The notes under the pieces: generated by a model
What the model was told of the DNA's origin: nothing
What the model saw: the letters and a program-made list of their open reading frames with translations, nothing else
The model's database searches: none
Part shown: positions 3,369 through 63,479 of the stretch, in pieces
How the letters are laid out: the number at the start of each line of letters is the position of its first letter
Numbering within the stretch: the stretch's first letter is position 1
Sequence record: OR352949.1
Length of the DNA: 64,000 bases
Source: Escherichia phage AV119
Reading direction: 5' to 3' (one strand)
Made by a program: the position numbers and the translations under genes

Positions 3369-3677
3369 TTATTTACCAATAAATTGAAGCAAATGCTCAA
3401 CTTTCATACCATTAACAGAAATCAATTTGTCAATAGAAAAACCTCGCCATGCGCCAAGTTCAACATCAAATATTGGAATCATGTCAGTAGATTCTTTCCG
3501 AGTAGATTCAGTCAATTTACCAGTTTGCATGGTTGGCATAAAGTCTGCATCACGCGTACCTTTCATAGTACGAATAGTACCATCAGACTTTTCAAAAACT
3601 ACGTTTGAAACACCCATGGACAGTTTAGTTTTCAAAATTTCACGAATTGCTACTTTCTGCTCAGTTGTCAGTTTCAT
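3369..3677 (-). CDS. hypothetical protein (102 aa), T4 31.1-like
   Basis: co-oriented ORF between 31 and cd. Confidence 0.55.
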   Translation of the reverse strand: MKLTTEQKVAIREILKTKLSMGVSNVVFEKSDGTIRTMKGTRDADFMPTMQTGKLTESTRKESTDMIPIFDVELGAWRGFSIDKLISVNGMKVEHLLQFIGK

Positions 3678-21782: not shown

Positions 21783-24700
21783 ATGGCCGAGATTAAAAGA
21801 AAGTTCAGAGCAGAAGACGGTCTGGACGCAGGTGGTGATAAAATAATCAACGTAGCTTTAGCTGATCGTACCGTAGGAACTGACGGTGTTAACGTTGATT
21901 ACTTAATTCAAGAAAACACAGTTCAGCAATATGATCCAACTCGTGGATATTTAAAAGATTTTGTAATCATTTATGATAACCGCTTTTGGGCTGCTATAAA
22001 TGATATTCCAAAACCAGCAGGAGCTTTTAATAGCGTACGATGGAGAGCGTTACGTACTGATGCAAACTGGACAACTGTTTCGTCAGGACCTTATCAATTA
22101 AAATCAGGCGAATCGATTTCAGTTAACACCGCAGCTGGTAATGATATTACATTTACTTTACCATCTACCCCAATTGATGGTGATACTATCGTTCTCCAAG
22201 ATATTGGAGGAAAACCTGGAGTTAATCAGGTTTTAATTACAGCTCCGGTACAAAGCATTGTAAACTTTAGAGGTCAACAAGTACGCTCAGTACTAATGAC
22301 TCATCCAAAATCACAGATAGTTTTAATTTTTAGTAATCGTCTGTGGCAAATGTATGTTGCTGATTATAGTAGAGAAGCTGTAGTTGTAACTCCTGCGAGT
22401 CTCTATCAGGCACAATCAAACGATTTTATCGTACGTAGATTTACTTCTGCTTCAGCAATTAATATTAAACTTCCAAGATTTGCCAATCATGGCGATATTA
22501 TTAATTTCGTTGATTTGGATAAATTAAATCCTCTTTATCACACAATTGTTACTACATATGATGAAACAACTTCAGTACAAGAAGTTGGAACTCATTCCAT
22601 TGAAGGCCGTACATCGATTGACGGTTTCTTGATGTTTGATGATAATGAGAAATTGTGGAGATTGTTTGACGGGGATAGTAAAGCACGTTTACGCATTATA
22701 ACAACTAATTCTAATATTCGTCCAAACGAAGAAGTCATGGTATTTGGCGCGAATAATGGAACAACCCAAACAATTGAACTTCAGCTTCCGACTGATATTT
22801 CTGTTGGTGATACTGTCAAAATTTCCATGAATTACATGAGAAAAGGACAAACGGTTAAAATCAAAGCTGCAGGTGAAGATAAAATTGCTTCTTCAGTTCA
22901 ATTGCTGCAATTCCCAAAACGCTCAGAATATCCACCTGAAGCTGAGTGGGTTACAGTTCAAGAATTAGTTTTTAACGGTGAAACTAATTATGTTCCAGTT
23001 TTAGAGCTTGCTTATATAGAAGATTCTGACGGAAAATATTGGGTTGTACAGCAAAATGTTCCAACCGTAGAAAGAGTAGATTCTTTAAATGATTCTACTA
23101 GAGCAAGATTAGGTGTAATTGCTTTAGCTACACAAGCTCAAGCTAATGCTGATTTAGAAAATTCTCCACAAAAAGAATTGGCAATTACTCCAGAAACGTT
23201 AGCTAATCGTACTGCTACAGAAACTCGTAGAGGTATTGCAAGAATAGCAACTACTGCTCAAGTGAATCAGAACACCACATTCTCTTTTGCAGATGACCTT
23301 ATCATTACTCCTAAAAAGCTGAATGAAAGAACTGCTACAGAAACTCGTAGAGGTGTCGCAGAAATTGCTACGCAGCAAGAAACTAATGCAGGAACCGATG
23401 ATACTACAATCATTACTCCTAAAAAGCTTCAAGCTCGTCAAGGTTCTGAATCATTATCTGGTATTGTAACTTTTGTATCTACTGCAGGTGCTACTCCAGC
23501 TTCTAGCCGTGAATTAAATGGTACGAATGTTTATAATAAAAACACTAATAATTTAGTTGTTTCACCTAAAGCTTTGGATCAGTATAAAGCTACTCCAACA
23601 CAACAAGGTGCGGTAATTTTAGCAGTTGAAAGTGAAGTAATTGCTGGACAAAGTCAGGAAGGATGGGCAAATGCGGTTGTAACGCCAGAAACGTTACATA
23701 AAAAGACATCAACTGATGGAAGAATTGGTTTAATTGAAATTGCTACGCAAAGTGAAGTTAATACAGGAACTGATTATACTCGTGCAGTCACTCCTAAAAC
23801 TTTAAATGACCGTAGAGCAACTGAAAGTTTAAGTGGTATAGCTGAAATTGCTACACAGGTTGAATTCGACGCAGGCGTCGACGATACTCGTATCTCTACA
23901 CCATTAAAAATTAAAACCAGATTTAATAGTACTGATCGTACTTCTGTTGTTGCTCTATCTGGATTAGTTGAATCAGGAACTCTCTGGGACCATTATACCC
24001 TTAATATTCTTGAAGCAAATGAGACACAGCGTGGTACACTTCGTGTAGCTACACAGGTTGAAGCTGCTGCAGGAACATTAGATAATGTTTTAATAACTCC
24101 TAAAAAGCTTTTAGGTACTAAATCTACCGAATCGCAAGAAGGTGTTATTAAAGTTGCAACTCAGTCTGAAACTGTGACTGGAACGTCAGCAAATACTGCT
24201 GTATCTCCAAAAAATTTAAAATGGATTGTGCAGAGTGAACCTACTTGGGCAGCGACTACTGCGATAAGAGGTTTTGTTAAAACTTCGTCTGGTTCAATTA
24301 CATTCGTTGGTAATGATACAGCTGGTTCAACACAGCCATTAGAATCATATGAGAAAAATGGTTATGCAGTATCACCATATGAATTAAATCGCGTATTAGC
24401 AAATTATTTGCCGTTAAAAGCAAAAGCCGTAGATAGTAATTTATTAGATGGTCTAGATTCGCTCCAGTTCATTCGTAGGGACATTGCACAAACAGTTAAT
24501 GGTTCACTAACCTTAACCCAACAAACGAATCTGAGTGCCCCTCTTGTATCATCTAGTACTGCTACATTCGGTGGATCAGTTTCAGCAAATAGTACATTAA
24601 CTATTTCTAATACTGGAACGGCAACTCGTCTGATTTTTGAGAAAGGACCTCAAACTGGAACTAACCCAGCACAGACGATGACTATTAGAGTTTGGGGAAA

Positions 24701-54663: not shown

Positions 54664-54816
54664 GCGATTTCCTTTTGCCTACTAATGGACCGTCAGGAAT
54701 TTTGTTTTCCTGGATATATTTCTCATTTTCTTCCATCATTTTACTACCGATTTTAAGAAGCAAATCCATTGCTTCATTTGCTTTAGCTTTAGCCTCTTCT
54801 AATATCATATCTCTGT

Positions 54817-57312: not shown

Positions 57313-57372
57313 TATTTTTCCTTTCAATTCATTAATAAGTTAAATAATTATATCATTTGAATATGTAAGCAA

Positions 57373-58712
<1,340 letters not shown>

Positions 58713-58811: not shown

Positions 58812-59012
58812 ATGGCACAAAAATTAATGGCACTTGTTAATGCCATCAAAGGTAATAAGAAACGTATAGCTTTTACTATTTCTGCTATGGTAGGAATTTT
58901 ACTCTGGAACTTTATTTTATCACCAATTGCAATTGCGCATGGTGTTAATATTCCAGTAGTTACTCTTGATACATTCGTAGATCTAGCATTTGCTTTAGTT
59001 GGGTTAATTTAA
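58812..59012 (+). CDS. small hydrophobic membrane protein (66 aa) on the opposite strand, convergent with gene 61
   Basis: strong RBS AAAGGAGGA 6 nt before ATG; two predicted TM segments; 3' end overlaps gene 61 stop. Confidence 0.45.
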   Translation: MAQKLMALVNAIKGNKKRIAFTISAMVGILLWNFILSPIAIAHGVNIPVVTLDTFVDLAFALVGLI

Positions 59013-60037
59013 ATCTTGGCATATTTAGATAACCGCATTTTAGCCATTAACCCCTGGGCAATATTATTTTTCATATATTCCATAATTTGTTCAGGGGTTG
59101 CACCTTCCTTTCTAATCATATCATTAACATCTTTTGATTTCCAGGGAGATTTATCCCAAAACATAACCCTTTCTCCTGCATCAACTAATTTAGTCATTCG
59201 CTTGATAGTGTCAGGGTGACGAGGTTCATTATCTAAAACCCACACTCGTCTATCTTTAAATGGAACAACTTCTAGGTCTAATTGACCACCCGTAATAGCT
59301 ATACCATTTTCAATAAAAAGCGAATCTATAGGTCCTTCTAGAACATATACATCACCATCTTTAACTCGTTCGACTCCATAGATTTTTGTTGCCTCAGGAT
59401 AAGCTTTGATGGTGATATATTTTTGAGGAGCATCTTTCTTTAATGCGCGTCCTTGAAAAGACTCAGCTTTTCCATTAGCATTATAAATTGGAATAACAAG
59501 ACGAGGCTCAGGTATTTCCTTTTTATATGTTCCTGGTGCTATACTATTAACTAATTTAGGCCATTCAGTTGTAAACCAAAGATATTTCCATTTATCCTTT
59601 GGAATACAACGAGCTTTTACGTATTTTATAATTGGATGGTCTTCCGCCAGTTTATCTAATCTAACACATGACGGAAGAGATTTAATTATTTTCTTCTCAG
59701 GTTGTTTAGGAAGTTCTTTAGGTTTTTCTACTGGACGACTTTTACCTTTTTCTTTTCTTATTTCAAAGATATACTCACGATATAAATCAGGTTCAAACTC
59801 CTTTAAATATATTCCTATTGGTGCATGATAGTTACAGTTATAACAATGAATATTTCCTTCATTATTATCACCATAATACCATCCACGGGCTTTATTTTGG
59901 TCGGTTTTTGAATCTCCACAAACTGGGCATCTAAACCGTAATTTAAAAGTTGAACTATTATTTACTTGTGTGAATTTAGGTAAATGAGCTAATGCACGGT
60001 ATGCAAACTCATTATCAATCCAAGGTATTGATGACAT
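59009..60037 (-). CDS. 61: DNA primase gp61
   Basis: 342 aa; N-terminal zinc-binding CPVC...CYNC; matches T4 gp61. Confidence 0.93.
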   Translation of the reverse strand: MSSIPWIDNEFAYRALAHLPKFTQVNNSSTFKLRFRCPVCGDSKTDQNKARGWYYGDNNEGNIHCYNCNYHAPIGIYLKEFEPDLYREYIFEIRKEKGKSRPVEKPKELPKQPEKKIIKSLPSCVRLDKLAEDHPIIKYVKARCIPKDKWKYLWFTTEWPKLVNSIAPGTYKKEIPEPRLVIPIYNANGKAESFQGRALKKDAPQKYITIKAYPEATKIYGVERVKDGDVYVLEGPIDSLFIENGIAITGGQLDLEVVPFKDRRVWVLDNEPRHPDTIKRMTKLVDAGERVMFWDKSPWKSKDVNDMIRKEGATPEQIMEYMKNNIAQGLMAKMRLSKYAKI

Positions 60038-60039
60038 TT

Positions 60040-60204
60040 TTACTCTTCTTTTTCTTTAGATTCCTCTTTTTTCTTTTTAGGAATCTGTTCAGGACCTTTA
60101 TTTACTACAGCACCTGACGTTGTTCCAGTAGAGATATTTTCAGGATTACCACCTGAATCTCCAGCGACCATATCTTCTTTAATAAATTCTTTATATGTTT
60201 TCAT
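60040..60204 (-). CDS. small acidic/lysine-rich low-complexity protein (54 aa)
   Basis: ATG at 60204 two nt after upstream stop; stop TAA 2 nt before gene 61 ATG; not in ORF track. Confidence 0.4.
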   Translation of the reverse strand: MKTYKEFIKEDMVAGDSGGNPENISTGTTSGAVVNKGPEQIPKKKKEESKEKEE

Positions 60205-60250
60205 ATTAACCTCTATTCATAAAAGCATTAAAAATTTGGTCATCAATAGA
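60202..60250 (-). repeat. 49-nt direct repeat copy A spanning stop-start junction
   Basis: near-identical (3 mismatches) to 60560..60608. Confidence 0.7.
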
Positions 60251-60562
60251 TGGCGCAGTAATATTTTCTGCATCATTTAGCAAATCATTAATTTCATCAG
60301 ATAGCATAACACATGTACCTTTATTTCCTGTAATTGTTACTGCGCAATTACGAACGTTTTCTTTATTAAATTTTAGGTTAATATTTTCGTAATGAAAATC
60401 CTTTAATGCTGAATATATTTTTAAAATAAAATTATCTTTTACTACAATAAACCCAACCTCACTATTAAAACGCGGTTCATGGAAACTGTAATAAACCTTT
60501 TCATCTATAAAATCGTATGAAATTTTTTCCATTTTTAAATATGAAAATTCAGAACTATACAT
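60206..60562 (-). CDS. hypothetical protein (118 aa), 61.1-like; paralog of adjacent 210-aa ORF
   Basis: shares C-terminus IDDQIFNAFMN(R/K)G with 60564..61196. Confidence 0.55.
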   Translation of the reverse strand: MYSSEFSYLKMEKISYDFIDEKVYYSFHEPRFNSEVGFIVVKDNFILKIYSALKDFHYENINLKFNKENVRNCAVTITGNKGTCVMLSDEINDLLNDAENITAPSIDDQIFNAFMNRG

Positions 60563-60608
60563 ATTAACCTTTATTCATAAAAGCATTAAAAATTTGATCG
60601 TCAATAGA
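60560..60608 (-). repeat. 49-nt direct repeat copy B spanning stop-start junction
   Basis: near-identical to 60202..60250. Confidence 0.7.
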
Positions 60609-61196
60609 AACTTTTACTTTAGGCTGTTCTTCAAACGGTAATTCATATCCACATATTACAATTTTGTGATCGATACCAAAATACACAGAAGCAATATTAT
60701 TAATATTATTTTCAGTGAAATCTAAATCAACATCAATATCTTTTTGACTAACGCTCAAAGGATAATTAATACGAATAATTCGATTATCTTTAACAAAGAT
60801 TCCACCGACATACTCTGTGCTGCGTTTAAAGTTTACACGTTTCCTAAATGAAAAATATTCAGGTTCTTTATGGGCTCGACTCATAGGGCTTAAAGTGTAT
60901 TCCGAATATGAAATATCAAATCCTACACCTTCAATATGAGCCAAAGTGTCATGATTAAACCAATTATAATCGTATGCCAAATCCATTAAATTGTAATATG
61001 TGAAAGGCACCGGATTAACATCATATATTGTACCTTTAAAATCTGCCCAAGCAACGATTTCGTTATCTTTAACAATTACAAAAATTGTGCCAATAAGATA
61101 TCCACGGTTATTTTCATCAGGCGTTATATTATAACATTGTGCATCAGGAAATTTACCGTATTTAAACGGTGGATTTTTGTGCATATAATAAATCAT
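60564..61196 (-). CDS. hypothetical protein (210 aa), 61.2-like
   Basis: co-oriented ORF; paralogous C-terminal half. Confidence 0.55.
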   Translation of the reverse strand: MIYYMHKNPPFKYGKFPDAQCYNITPDENNRGYLIGTIFVIVKDNEIVAWADFKGTIYDVNPVPFTYYNLMDLAYDYNWFNHDTLAHIEGVGFDISYSEYTLSPMSRAHKEPEYFSFRKRVNFKRSTEYVGGIFVKDNRIIRINYPLSVSQKDIDVDLDFTENNINNIASVYFGIDHKIVICGYELPFEEQPKVKVSIDDQIFNAFMNKG

Positions 61197-61197
61197 A

Positions 61198-61491
61198 TTA
61201 TTCGCCTGTGATTTCGGTTACGATATTTTTGTTATTAAAGTTTTTATCGCAATACAGAACATAATTATACTGCATTACACCACCAGACTTAAGTTGTTTT
61301 TGCACTTCAGCTTTCATTTCAGGACGATCGCGCTCAACGATATTCATAATATCCGCTTCAATTTGAGTTTCAACTTCAGTCTGATCTGCAGTCATAGACC
61401 ATTCACACAAATCTTTATCATATCCTGCCATAGCAGGCTGAGCAGCACAAGAAGCCAAAGTAAAAATTGTAGCAAAAATAAATTTTTTCAT
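61198..61491 (-). CDS. putative lipoprotein (97 aa), 61.3-like
   Basis: signal peptide with LASC lipobox. Confidence 0.55.
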   Translation of the reverse strand: MKKFIFATIFTLASCAAQPAMAGYDKDLCEWSMTADQTEVETQIEADIMNIVERDRPEMKAEVQKQLKSGGVMQYNYVLYCDKNFNNKNIVTEITGE

Positions 61492-61518
61492 GATAATCTC
61501 CTCAGTAGTTTATATTTA

Positions 61519-61549
61519 TATAGTATCTCAATTTCCAACAAAAGTAAAC
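61519..61549 (-). promoter_or_regulatory. early-type promoter
   Basis: minus strand GTTTAC (61549..61544) and GATACTATA. Confidence 0.4.
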
Positions 61550-61551
61550 AG

Positions 61552-61809
61552 CTATTTTAAAACTTCTGCGTAATCACATGTTACAAACTGTTTCTCTAGC
61601 TTAACGATTTTACGAAAATACCTTTTATACTGACGAATCTGTCGCTTCGTAGGACGTACAGCAAACTTAATAAATTCCACTCGACCAAATGGAGGACTTT
61701 CTTCTGCTGGAATATCTAACACCAATTCCCACGTATCTGCAATAAGTGCTTTGAATTGAGTATTTTTCCTGACGTTATACGGAGTAGGTTTAAATAAAAC
61801 AATATGCAT
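61552..61809 (-). CDS. hypothetical protein (85 aa from MHIVLF; ORF track extends to 61851), 61.4-like
   Basis: RBS GAGGA before ATG 61809; avoids overlap with dmd. Confidence 0.5.
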   Translation of the reverse strand: MHIVLFKPTPYNVRKNTQFKALIADTWELVLDIPAEESPPFGRVEFIKFAVRPTKRQIRQYKRYFRKIVKLEKQFVTCDYAEVLK

Positions 61810-61810
61810 A

Positions 61811-61993
61811 TTATCCTCGGCAATCCACTTCGCACACTTTCTTGTCATCAATGAAAGCTTTAACTAATGCTTTATTAACTTCAGCATATTGAGTAGTAGC
61901 CCATTGAACGTCATCTTTCATCATTGTGATTTCTTTAGTAAACATGCTTTCATTCTTAAACCACCCCATAAAAACTACCTTTACCAATTCCAT
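61811..61993 (-). CDS. dmd: Dmd-like antitoxin (60 aa), inhibitor of host RnlA/LsoA toxins
   Basis: 60-aa ORF directly downstream of gene 41, matching size and position of T4 dmd (61.5). Confidence 0.6.
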   Translation of the reverse strand: MELVKVVFMGWFKNESMFTKEITMMKDDVQWATTQYAEVNKALVKAFIDDKKVCEVDCRG

Positions 61994-62020
61994 AACAATC
62001 TCCTCATTTAACCAACAAGA

Positions 62021-62052
62021 CTACTATACCATAGTCTTGTCAGCTTGTAAAC
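62021..62052 (-). promoter_or_regulatory. early-type promoter upstream of dmd
   Basis: minus strand GTTTAC (62052..62047) and GGTATAGTAG. Confidence 0.45.
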
Positions 62053-63479
62053 TAAAATTTTAATTCATTTGCCAAAGCATCTAACTGAGCTCGAGCTGAT
62101 TCGTTTCTTTGATAGCGATTCTGTTCAGCCTGAATCTGTTGTGAACCTGCTACTTCACTCACTTCGGTTGGAGTAGAATCTTGTTCAATTTCTACCCATT
62201 TTTGATTTCCTTTTTGAACACCCATCAAAAACTTATTCCACTTATTCTTATCACCATATCGTGATTTGATTTGCTTAATAAGTTGTTGTTCAGCAGCTGC
62301 TAGCTCCTCAGTTTCAATGACCGCAAGCATAAAATCAGCTGTTGCTGGAAGACCAGCAGATTCTGCAATATCGCTCATGTTAACATCGGAAGAGTCCCAA
62401 GCTTGTTTACCGACCTGTGCTGCAGTCCAAAGAACAGTTTCGGTTTCAACAGCCAGAGCACGCAATTCCTCTGCGATAGCTTTAACAGTTGTGTAACTAT
62501 TTTCTGAATAAACTCGGATGCGACAAGATTTACAAATACCCAGATAGTCGACAATAATGATTGTTGGAACAAAATTCTTCTTGAGCTTTAATTCATTTAA
62601 AAGTGATCGAAATGTATTAGCGTCTGCTCCACCAGTAGGATATTGCTTAACGATTAAACGACCAAGGGTAGATTTCTCACGCCATTTTTCCATTTTTCCT
62701 TTATATTCAGCGTAAGAAATATGCCCATCATCAATGTCATCAAGAGAAACATCAAGCATATTAGCATCAATACGCTTAGCACAGACTTCTTCTGCCATTT
62801 CCATGGAAATATAAAGAACATTATGTCCGAGCTGTAAATAATCTGCCGCTAATGAACACAATCCTAATGATTTACCAACGTTAACGCCAGCCATTAAAAC
62901 GTTCAGTGTTCCAGTCTCAGCTCCGCCTTTAGTAATTTTGTTTAGAATTCTGAGTTTAAATGGAACCTTACGAGCTTTATTCATATAAGATAGCCAACGC
63001 GCTTCATAGTCATCCATCCAATCATGACCAACGTAGCTATCAAATGAAATTGATAATGCTTGGCGCATGATGTCAGGAATAGCACCTACATCTGGCATTT
63101 TCTTATTTCGTTTTTCCGGAGGAAGCTCAGCATTAGTTTGAATTTCGATTATTTTAGACGTAGCATTAAACATCGCCCTTTGCTGAACATATTTTTCTGT
63201 TTCTTTTATTAACCAACTGTGGTCTTCTGGAGAATCAGCTAGTTTTGAAATAAGTGTTTTTACACCAGAATATTCTGTTTCAGTAAATGAACTATTTTCT
63301 AATGCAACATTTAACGCATTAATAGATGGAACGCTATGATACTCATTGACATGAGATTTAATTAATTTGAATGTATTTTTAGCTGGACCACTTTCAAAAT
63401 ATTCTGAATCCATATATGGCCAAACTTTTGAAAAATAAGCTTGATCAAATATGAGATGAGAAAGAATAATTTCTACCAC
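62052..63479 (-). CDS. 41: replicative DNA helicase gp41 (DnaB-like)
   Basis: 475 aa; Walker A GVNVGKS; matches T4 gp41. Confidence 0.95.
   Translation of the reverse strand: MVEIILSHLIFDQAYFSKVWPYMDSEYFESGPAKNTFKLIKSHVNEYHSVPSINALNVALENSSFTETEYSGVKTLISKLADSPEDHSWLIKETEKYVQQRAMFNATSKIIEIQTNAELPPEKRNKKMPDVGAIPDIMRQALSISFDSYVGHDWMDDYEARWLSYMNKARKVPFKLRILNKITKGGAETGTLNVLMAGVNVGKSLGLCSLAADYLQLGHNVLYISMEMAEEVCAKRIDANMLDVSLDDIDDGHISYAEYKGKMEKWREKSTLGRLIVKQYPTGGADANTFRSLLNELKLKKNFVPTIIIVDYLGICKSCRIRVYSENSYTTVKAIAEELRALAVETETVLWTAAQVGKQAWDSSDVNMSDIAESAGLPATADFMLAVIETEELAAAEQQLIKQIKSRYGDKNKWNKFLMGVQKGNQKWVEIEQDSTPTEVSEVAGSQQIQAEQNRYQRNESARAQLDALANELKF

Follow-up and report, generated by a model that had tools for sequence, protein, structure and literature searches.

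Two paralogous genes of the AdfA family stand side by side in Escherichia phage AV119 and end in the same C-terminal tail, whose DNA overlaps the mapped middle promoter P61. Related phages are polymorphic for the two genes, and the indel breakpoints fall at the tail repeat. We give a probability of about 0.78 to the reading that the genes are two ancient paralogs, that their tail DNA is P61 and forms a near-invariant repeat, and that recombination produces from it a polymorphism of three states.

The window, that is, the whole stretch of 64,000 nucleotides that was analysed (sequence record OR352949.1), belongs to a Tequatrovirus. Its segment matches Escherichia phage AV120 with 100% identity, and many Tequatrovirus genomes are 97-99% identical to it. 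In T4 the same interval consists of sp, 61.2, 61.1 and 61, and the order of the island in the window is 41 - dmd - tifA (61.4) - sp - adfA (61.2) - (118-aa gene) - 61.1 - 61, with the following features:

62052-63479, minus strand: gene 41
61811-61993, minus strand: dmd
within 61552-61851, minus strand: 61.4 / tifA
61198-61491, minus strand: sp (spackle, 97 aa), upstream neighbour of adfA
60564-61196, minus strand: adfA (T4 gene 61.2), 210 aa, assigned by PF23813 and by synteny with T4 between sp and 61.1
60560-60608, minus strand: upstream repeat copy, with the adfA tail codons SIDDQIFNAFMNKG, the stop and the ATG of the 118-aa gene
60206-60562, minus strand: single-domain AdfA paralog, 118 aa, assigned by BLASTP and the C-terminal half of PF23813
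60202-60250, minus strand: downstream repeat copy, with the tail codons SIDDQIFNAFMNRG, the TAA stop, the GAGG ribosome-binding site and the ATG of 61.1
60040-60204, minus strand: gene 61.1, 54 aa, 96-100% identical to T4 and T2 gp61.1
59009-60037, minus strand: primase gene 61

The 210-aa protein matched the Pfam family PF23813 (AdfA) over its full length (positions 1-211, 458.7 bits) and has the complete two-domain architecture of AdfA, of about 210 aa. Its gene lies between sp and 61.1 in the dmd-tifA-sp island and is labelled 'anti-DarT factor A' in PV857777. Judged from sequence and position, it is T4 61.2, the two-domain adfA (anti-DarT factor A), and a full-length member of the family in the same genomic position as T4 gp61.2 and the RB69 ortholog. 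AdfA has been reported to bind and thereby neutralise the DarT1 ADP-ribosyltransferase (Johannesman et al., PMC11257639 / PMC11825919; Srikant et al., PMC9391042), a His at position 164 of RB69 AdfA being required for this neutralisation (PMC11257639 / PMC11825919), and adfA together with dmd and tifA has been proposed to form an anti-toxin-antitoxin island (PMC11257639 / PMC11825919; PMC9391042). At the equivalent of RB69 position 164 (codon 167, 60696-60698, minus strand) the AdfA of the window carries neither the DarT1-neutralising His nor the inactive Arg but an Asn; of 15 distinct AdfA sequences, 10 had H at this site, 4 had N and one had R. Since Asn is found instead of the required His both in the window AdfA and at the aligned position of the 118-aa protein, DarT1 neutralisation should not be assumed for either.

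The adfA gene was the most variable part of the region, with pi up to 0.35 among the seven phages with both genes. It occurs as two strongly diverged alleles: with T4-type DNA the window gene aligned in its 3' 416 nt only (88%), whereas RB69-like adfA genes aligned with it over the whole length (85%), so that the window allele has the appearance of a mosaic whose N-terminal part (61025-61196, the 5' third) is RB69-like.

The preliminary description had taken the two ORFs for paralogs with internal similarity, and BLASTP confirmed this, the 118-aa protein being 37% identical to residues 111-210 of the 210-aa protein over 106 aa (E=5e-11). PF23813 matched the 118-aa protein at 32.2 bits (cut-off 27) and at profile positions 113-211 only, which leaves the two-domain architecture of about 210 aa represented by its C-terminal half alone. 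The 118-aa protein shares with AdfA the tail and the helix that bears the specificity residue (RB69 164), but it is without the whole N-terminal domain and only about 35% identical. AlphaFold (AF2) modelled it as a confident single domain (pLDDT 81) of five strands followed by helices, in which the tail is the final helix, at low confidence; the AdfA model (pLDDT 69) consists of two strand-then-helix units. Comparison of both models with the PDB gave no informative match, and scans of NCBIfam and Rfam returned nothing. After removal of the tails, hhalign aligned the body of the short protein with either half of AdfA (E=1.2e-4 for the C-half and 1.1e-4 for the N-half), and the direct hhalign of the N-half with the C-half gave no significance. 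Tentatively, an internal duplication is suggested as the origin of AdfA.

The 118-aa gene corresponds to phrog_4122, HY01_0032 and RB32ORF033c. Most of the differences among its orthologs in ten phages are synonymous, with a dN/dS of 0.02-0.3 (a range that excludes the divergent L005 allele), so that by this pattern the ORF counts as a real gene under purifying selection. An artefact of assembly, which the preliminary description had named as the outcome that would overturn it, or of annotation (a collapsed or duplicated read pile-up, or a spurious ORF) can practically be dismissed. It has nothing in its favour beyond the general possibility that attends any repeat, and it is contradicted by the purifying selection, by the same architecture in 157 independently sequenced phages and by the short gene standing alone in 141 further records.

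The short gene is absent from T4 and is the sole AdfA-family gene in T2. Contrary to the published statement that T2 'naturally lacks' an adfA homolog (PMC11825919), this phage does carry the short AdfA paralog, which is annotated from an internal Met as a product of 108 aa and named '61.2'. In the same stretch of T2 (locus L035, NC_054931, 2194-2530), sp has a 1-nt insertion near its 3' end that gives a Spackle of 92 aa instead of 97 aa. The short gene of the Shigella phage ESh36 (locus L044, an UNVERIFIED record, 1019-1363) has lost 1 nt close to its 3' end, so that the ORF is annotated with a shortened length of 345 nt (114 aa); either an error of sequencing or a genuine pseudogenisation could account for this.

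Outside the tail, the bodies of the two window genes are 45% identical in nucleotides and 33% in amino acids (codon alignment), and identical residues use the same codon in 9 of 26 cases, against 13.6 expected from codon usage. High identity does not extend along the whole duplicated unit but is confined to its last 49 nt (94%). These values are hard to reconcile with the recent tandem duplication that had been proposed at first, under which the repeat would be that end of a young duplicate which has not yet diverged. The genes are indeed adjacent, co-oriented and homologous, and their junction is 94% identical; however, besides the divergence of the bodies and the same-codon sharing below expectation, the two genes belong to separate PHROG families, the short gene has one domain and AdfA two, and in another genus, Gaprivervirus, a short-gene ortholog of 45% identity stands in tandem with another tail-bearing gene. 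We regard a recent duplication as highly improbable and the two genes as what appear to be ancient paralogs, AdfA and a single-domain relative of its C-terminal half.

The junctions behind the two genes form a 49-nt direct repeat (60202-60250 and 60560-60608) with 94% identity, three mismatches and a spacing of 358 nt, which was the sole family returned by the repeat search and whose copies flank the 118-aa ORF. Its 37-nt core matched exactly two sites in the 64-kb window (at up to 3 mismatches), and two core matches were obtained in 0 of 100 dinucleotide-preserving shuffles of the window. The repeat search and the shuffles agree with the preliminary description, which had reported a 49-nt block in two copies with three mismatches, and the block does extend from the C-terminal codons across the stop to the next start codon. 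The shared ends, given there as 12 residues, are a true common tail that is slightly longer than claimed: 13 of 14 aligned tail residues are identical, and both ORFs end in SIDDQIFNAFMN(R/K)G. The start codon of gene 61.1 lies inside the downstream copy, which is identical to the T4 junction. In the promoter spacer described below, the upstream copy differs from it by one base (AAA for AGA).

The tail of the AdfA family reads DDQIFNAFM(N/K)(R/K)(G/D). A profile search of 1.84 billion representative proteins returned only 7 AdfA-family clusters, and the tail was present in all four clusters whose sequences were read (P0022-P0025), two of which are single-domain relatives of 120-125 aa; a pattern scan of IMG/VR added 5 Tequatrovirus loci only. 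The family is small, old and phage-only. The Gaprivervirus phages VR25 (L019), VR7 and VR20 carry a short-gene ortholog of 119 aa (45% identity) in tandem behind a gene of ~145 aa with a third body type (phrog_8539). This gene has only the tail in common with the family, and outside the tail a profile comparison with the short gene did not reach significance (E=0.011). Dhakavirus phages have the third body type only, and RB69-like phages AdfA only. Since the peptide is kept across genera while the synonymous sites of the tail vary (GCT/GCC/GCA, TTT/TTC, CAA/CAG, AGA/CGA), the tail peptide itself is, as far as these alignments tell, under strong selection.

The DNA of the tail also contains a promoter. 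The preliminary description had recognised neither this promoter nor the longer gene as adfA. The MotA box has the consensus (a/t)(a/t)(a/t)TGCTTtA and lies 12 +/- 1 bp from the -10 element TAtaaT (Hinton review, PMC2988021), and the start site of the T4 MotA-dependent middle promoter P61 was mapped at T4 coordinate 19122 (PMC2988021 Table 1). We located this position at the A 7 nt after TAATAT in AATGCTTTTATGAATAGAGGTTAATATGAAAACA, and in T4 the MotA box TAATGCTTTT stands exactly 12 nt upstream of TAATAT. Both repeat copies of the window contain TAATGCTTTT, which fits the MotA consensus at 9 of 10 positions, followed by the 12-nt spacer ATGAATA[G/A]AGGT and by TAATAT. The codons AAT-GCT-TTT (Asn-Ala-Phe) are at the same time the MotA box, the stop codon with the next ATG makes up the -10 TAATAT, and the next gene has its ribosome-binding site, GAGG, in AGA-GGT (Arg-Gly). 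The downstream copy is base-for-base the T4 P61 region, and the upstream copy retains the MotA box, the 12-nt spacing and the -10 element; the window differs from T4 in that the motif occurs twice, 358 nt apart, the second (putative) one preceding a gene that is missing from T4. The positions of the two motifs are the following:

MotA box 60221-60230, -10 TAATAT 60203-60208, predicted +1 at 60196: downstream P61 ortholog (motif match 60203-60227)
MotA box 60579-60588, -10 60561-60566, predicted +1 near 60554: upstream P61-like motif (motif match)

P61 starts within gene 61.1, 8 nt past the ATG, and P61 transcripts therefore serve the primase gene. Transcripts from the upstream copy would start within the 118-aa ORF, after its ATG, and we infer that this copy is an active promoter; the record of phage Lutter (MT682714) annotates both copies as promoters. 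In phages that have both genes, the primase gene is probably preceded by two copies of P61. Shuffling predicts 4.4 sites with the pattern TGCTT-N13-15-TAWWWT in the window, and 17 were found. Of these, thirteen lie on the minus strand, which is the early/middle-transcription strand (e.g. 57347-57371, 54738-54762 and 23992-24017), and the sites other than those in the repeat are probably further middle promoters of this genome segment.

In Tequatrovirus, the tail-coding DNA doubles as the MotA-dependent middle promoter P61, and its simultaneous constraint as protein, promoter and translation signal is probably what holds the block near-identical behind both genes, P61 providing a selective reason for conservation at the nucleotide level. 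Among the seven phages with both genes, the downstream block had a pi of 0.006 and ranked 15 among 1069 windows of 49 nt. An alternative is that protein-level constraint on the C-terminal peptide alone, for example as a shared binding helix, accounts for the block, with promoter overlap and breakpoints being incidental. The tail is kept across genera and behind three body types despite many synonymous differences, and it is also kept where the MotA box (TGCATTT in RB69-like phages) or the -10 element (TGATAT in Dhakavirus) has been lost, so that protein constraint alone could explain most of the conservation. We nevertheless consider this alternative unlikely, as it leaves aside the near-invariance of the Tequatrovirus block at synonymous sites, seen in the pi of its downstream copy, the base-for-base coincidence with the mapped P61 and the indel breakpoints located exactly at the repeat in two genera.

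Gene conversion had also been suggested for the two junctions, and it is possible but weakly indicated. As the main cause of the near-identity, ongoing between the 3' ends and with selection on promoter and tail in a secondary place, it seems to us doubtful, though less so than protein constraint alone. The last 14 codons of the two genes are 93% identical, with an excess of shared codons (10/12 vs 6.9 expected, P=0.049). The repeat copies of ESh36 are identical at 43 of 43 positions, those of its relative Kha5h differing at one base. In the metagenomic phage L005 the Asp codons GAC-GAT and GAT-GAC are swapped between the copies relative to the window, its downstream copy having the GAC-GAT typical of the window-type upstream copy, and in Gaprivervirus the tails of L021 share CAG/TTC variants that differ in L019. 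However, the informative sites are few, four window-type phages keep the K/R difference between the copies, and the invariant stretch is made of the MotA box, spacer, -10 element, ribosome-binding site and ATG, all of which selection alone would fix. Because of the few informative sites and of the promoter selection that explains the invariant core, gene conversion would play at most a supporting role beside the triple constraint on the block.

The distribution of the two genes in nature was determined by searches of 50,697 phage records, 481 of which match the region. The short gene is present in 298 records; in 157 of them it is accompanied by adfA, with the adfA-to-short junction intact, and the other 141 (298 minus 157) have the short gene only, with the sp-to-short junction intact, as in T2. 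The remainder of the 481, about 180 records, have adfA only, as in T4.

Breakpoints between close relatives coincide with the repeat. T4, FJ1 and L008 have both flanks identical to those of Kha5h and ESh36, minus exactly 358 bp, which is one repeat period. The Gaprivervirus phage VR26 (L020) is without the short gene that VR25 and VR7 have, and its single tail joins upstream-type tail codons to a downstream-type flank, which places the breakpoint inside the repeat. The repeat is in this way tied to copy-number change in natural phages, as the preliminary description had anticipated. Where the two copies of the window differ, at 3 sites, the T4 junction has all three downstream-copy variants; T4 is for this reason not the simple crossover product of a window-like genome and would descend from a Kha5h/ESh36-like arrangement instead. 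In T2, ESh24 and N2 we found one common breakpoint, at which 14 nt left over from the repeat, TAGAGGTTAATATG, come after the sp stop. The stop region of sp is the left breakpoint of the adfA deletion in T2-type phages. The common breakpoint and the same sp-to-short junction, kept in all 141 short-only records, suggest that adfA was deleted once, in an ancestor with both genes. The search for a three-copy form (short-J-short) relied on a synthetic junction query in a search that joins non-colinear pieces, and no amplified form was seen.

These breakpoints suggest that recombination at the repeat caused the indels. The near-identical blocks constitute a direct repeat of 43-49 nt that places homology on each side of the short gene, and as T4 recombination acts on homologies far below 49 nt (PMC9391042), the repeat can be read as a substrate for loss and regain of the cassette. 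Recombination between the copies would remove a 358-bp cassette consisting of the short gene and one promoter copy, and in mixed infection homologous recombination could restore it. Together with the separate, single deletion of adfA in the T2 lineage, this loss and regain would give the three states, adfA, short gene or both.

The repeat was also compared with the cassettes described for modular shuffling (PeSL; PMC2839356; PMC4122927). It resembles them in being a short conserved regulatory repeat around a non-essential ORF, whose copies lie on either side of variable ORFs and at the points where close relatives differ by indels. It differs in being a MotA-type middle promoter inside a coding tail, not an intergenic cassette. 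Promoter and terminator searches gave no sigma-70 -35/-10 match at the repeats and no terminator-like site in 59900-62100, and we rejected its classification as a PeSL, given that it is without sigma-70 -35 and terminator stem-loop and lies within coding sequence. A second comparison is offered by the amplification of dmd-tifA under toxIN selection in the same T4 island (Srikant et al. 2022, PMC9391042). The neighbourhood is the same, and in both cases the copy number of an anti-defence gene shifts by recombination at short repeats; that amplification, however, was selected in the laboratory and used homologies of 2-10 bp, whereas here a natural repeat of 43-49 nt accompanies a standing polymorphism.

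The T-even island to which the locus belongs already encodes Dmd, TifA and AdfA, all three of them proven anti-toxin factors. The half-size AdfA paralog, unnamed and present in about 300 sequenced phages, is a candidate for a missing counter-defence, e.g. against DarTG2 or other DarT variants, because it is widespread and is the sole family member in T2, a phage described as being without an adfA homolog. We infer that the 118-aa protein is an anti-defence factor with a specificity unlike that of AdfA. The locus also gives a concrete example of a promoter embedded in a coding tail that serves as homology for gain and loss of accessory genes. Among its components, adfA, P61 and recombination at regulatory repeats are known; the half-size paralog, the duplicated tail/P61 module and the three-state cassette polymorphism appear to be new. 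The current understanding is refined, not overturned.

A broader and rather speculative view, to which we assign a low likelihood, is that the AdfA family consists of plug-in anti-defence cassettes. The variable body domain would set the toxin or defence target, and the invariant C-terminal helix would be the common functional element. As the helix is encoded by the middle promoter, each cassette would carry its own promoter and homology arm, and co-infecting T-even phages could add, drop or swap inhibitors at one site. The 118-aa gene, the only member of the family in T2, would then be an inhibitor of a DarT-like or other toxin.

Other genes of the island vary as well. Gaprivervirus and Dhakavirus phages (L019, L021, L023-L027, L034) have two TifA-like genes in the island, with 33-47% identity to TifA; in L019 they lie at 2026-2235 and 3448-3612, one of them directly after the last AdfA-family tail. 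From this the anti-toxin genes of the island seem to have been repeatedly duplicated and reshuffled. An ORF of 63-65 aa (M[ST][TA][AM][IC]CTGSKISVF...GDKAIFV[IV]), absent from the window, is located directly 3' of adfA in RB69-like phages (L006, 2483-2680) and between the tifA-like gene and 61.1 in Gaprivervirus and Dhakavirus (L019/L023, 3593-3784). Finally, the dam-to-61 interval of the window contains a 186-aa ORF (58152-58712, minus strand, abutting dam) and a 66-aa ORF (58812-59012, plus strand); in T4 this interval is an unannotated gap of ~310 nt, and T2 has a related gene of 181 aa there.
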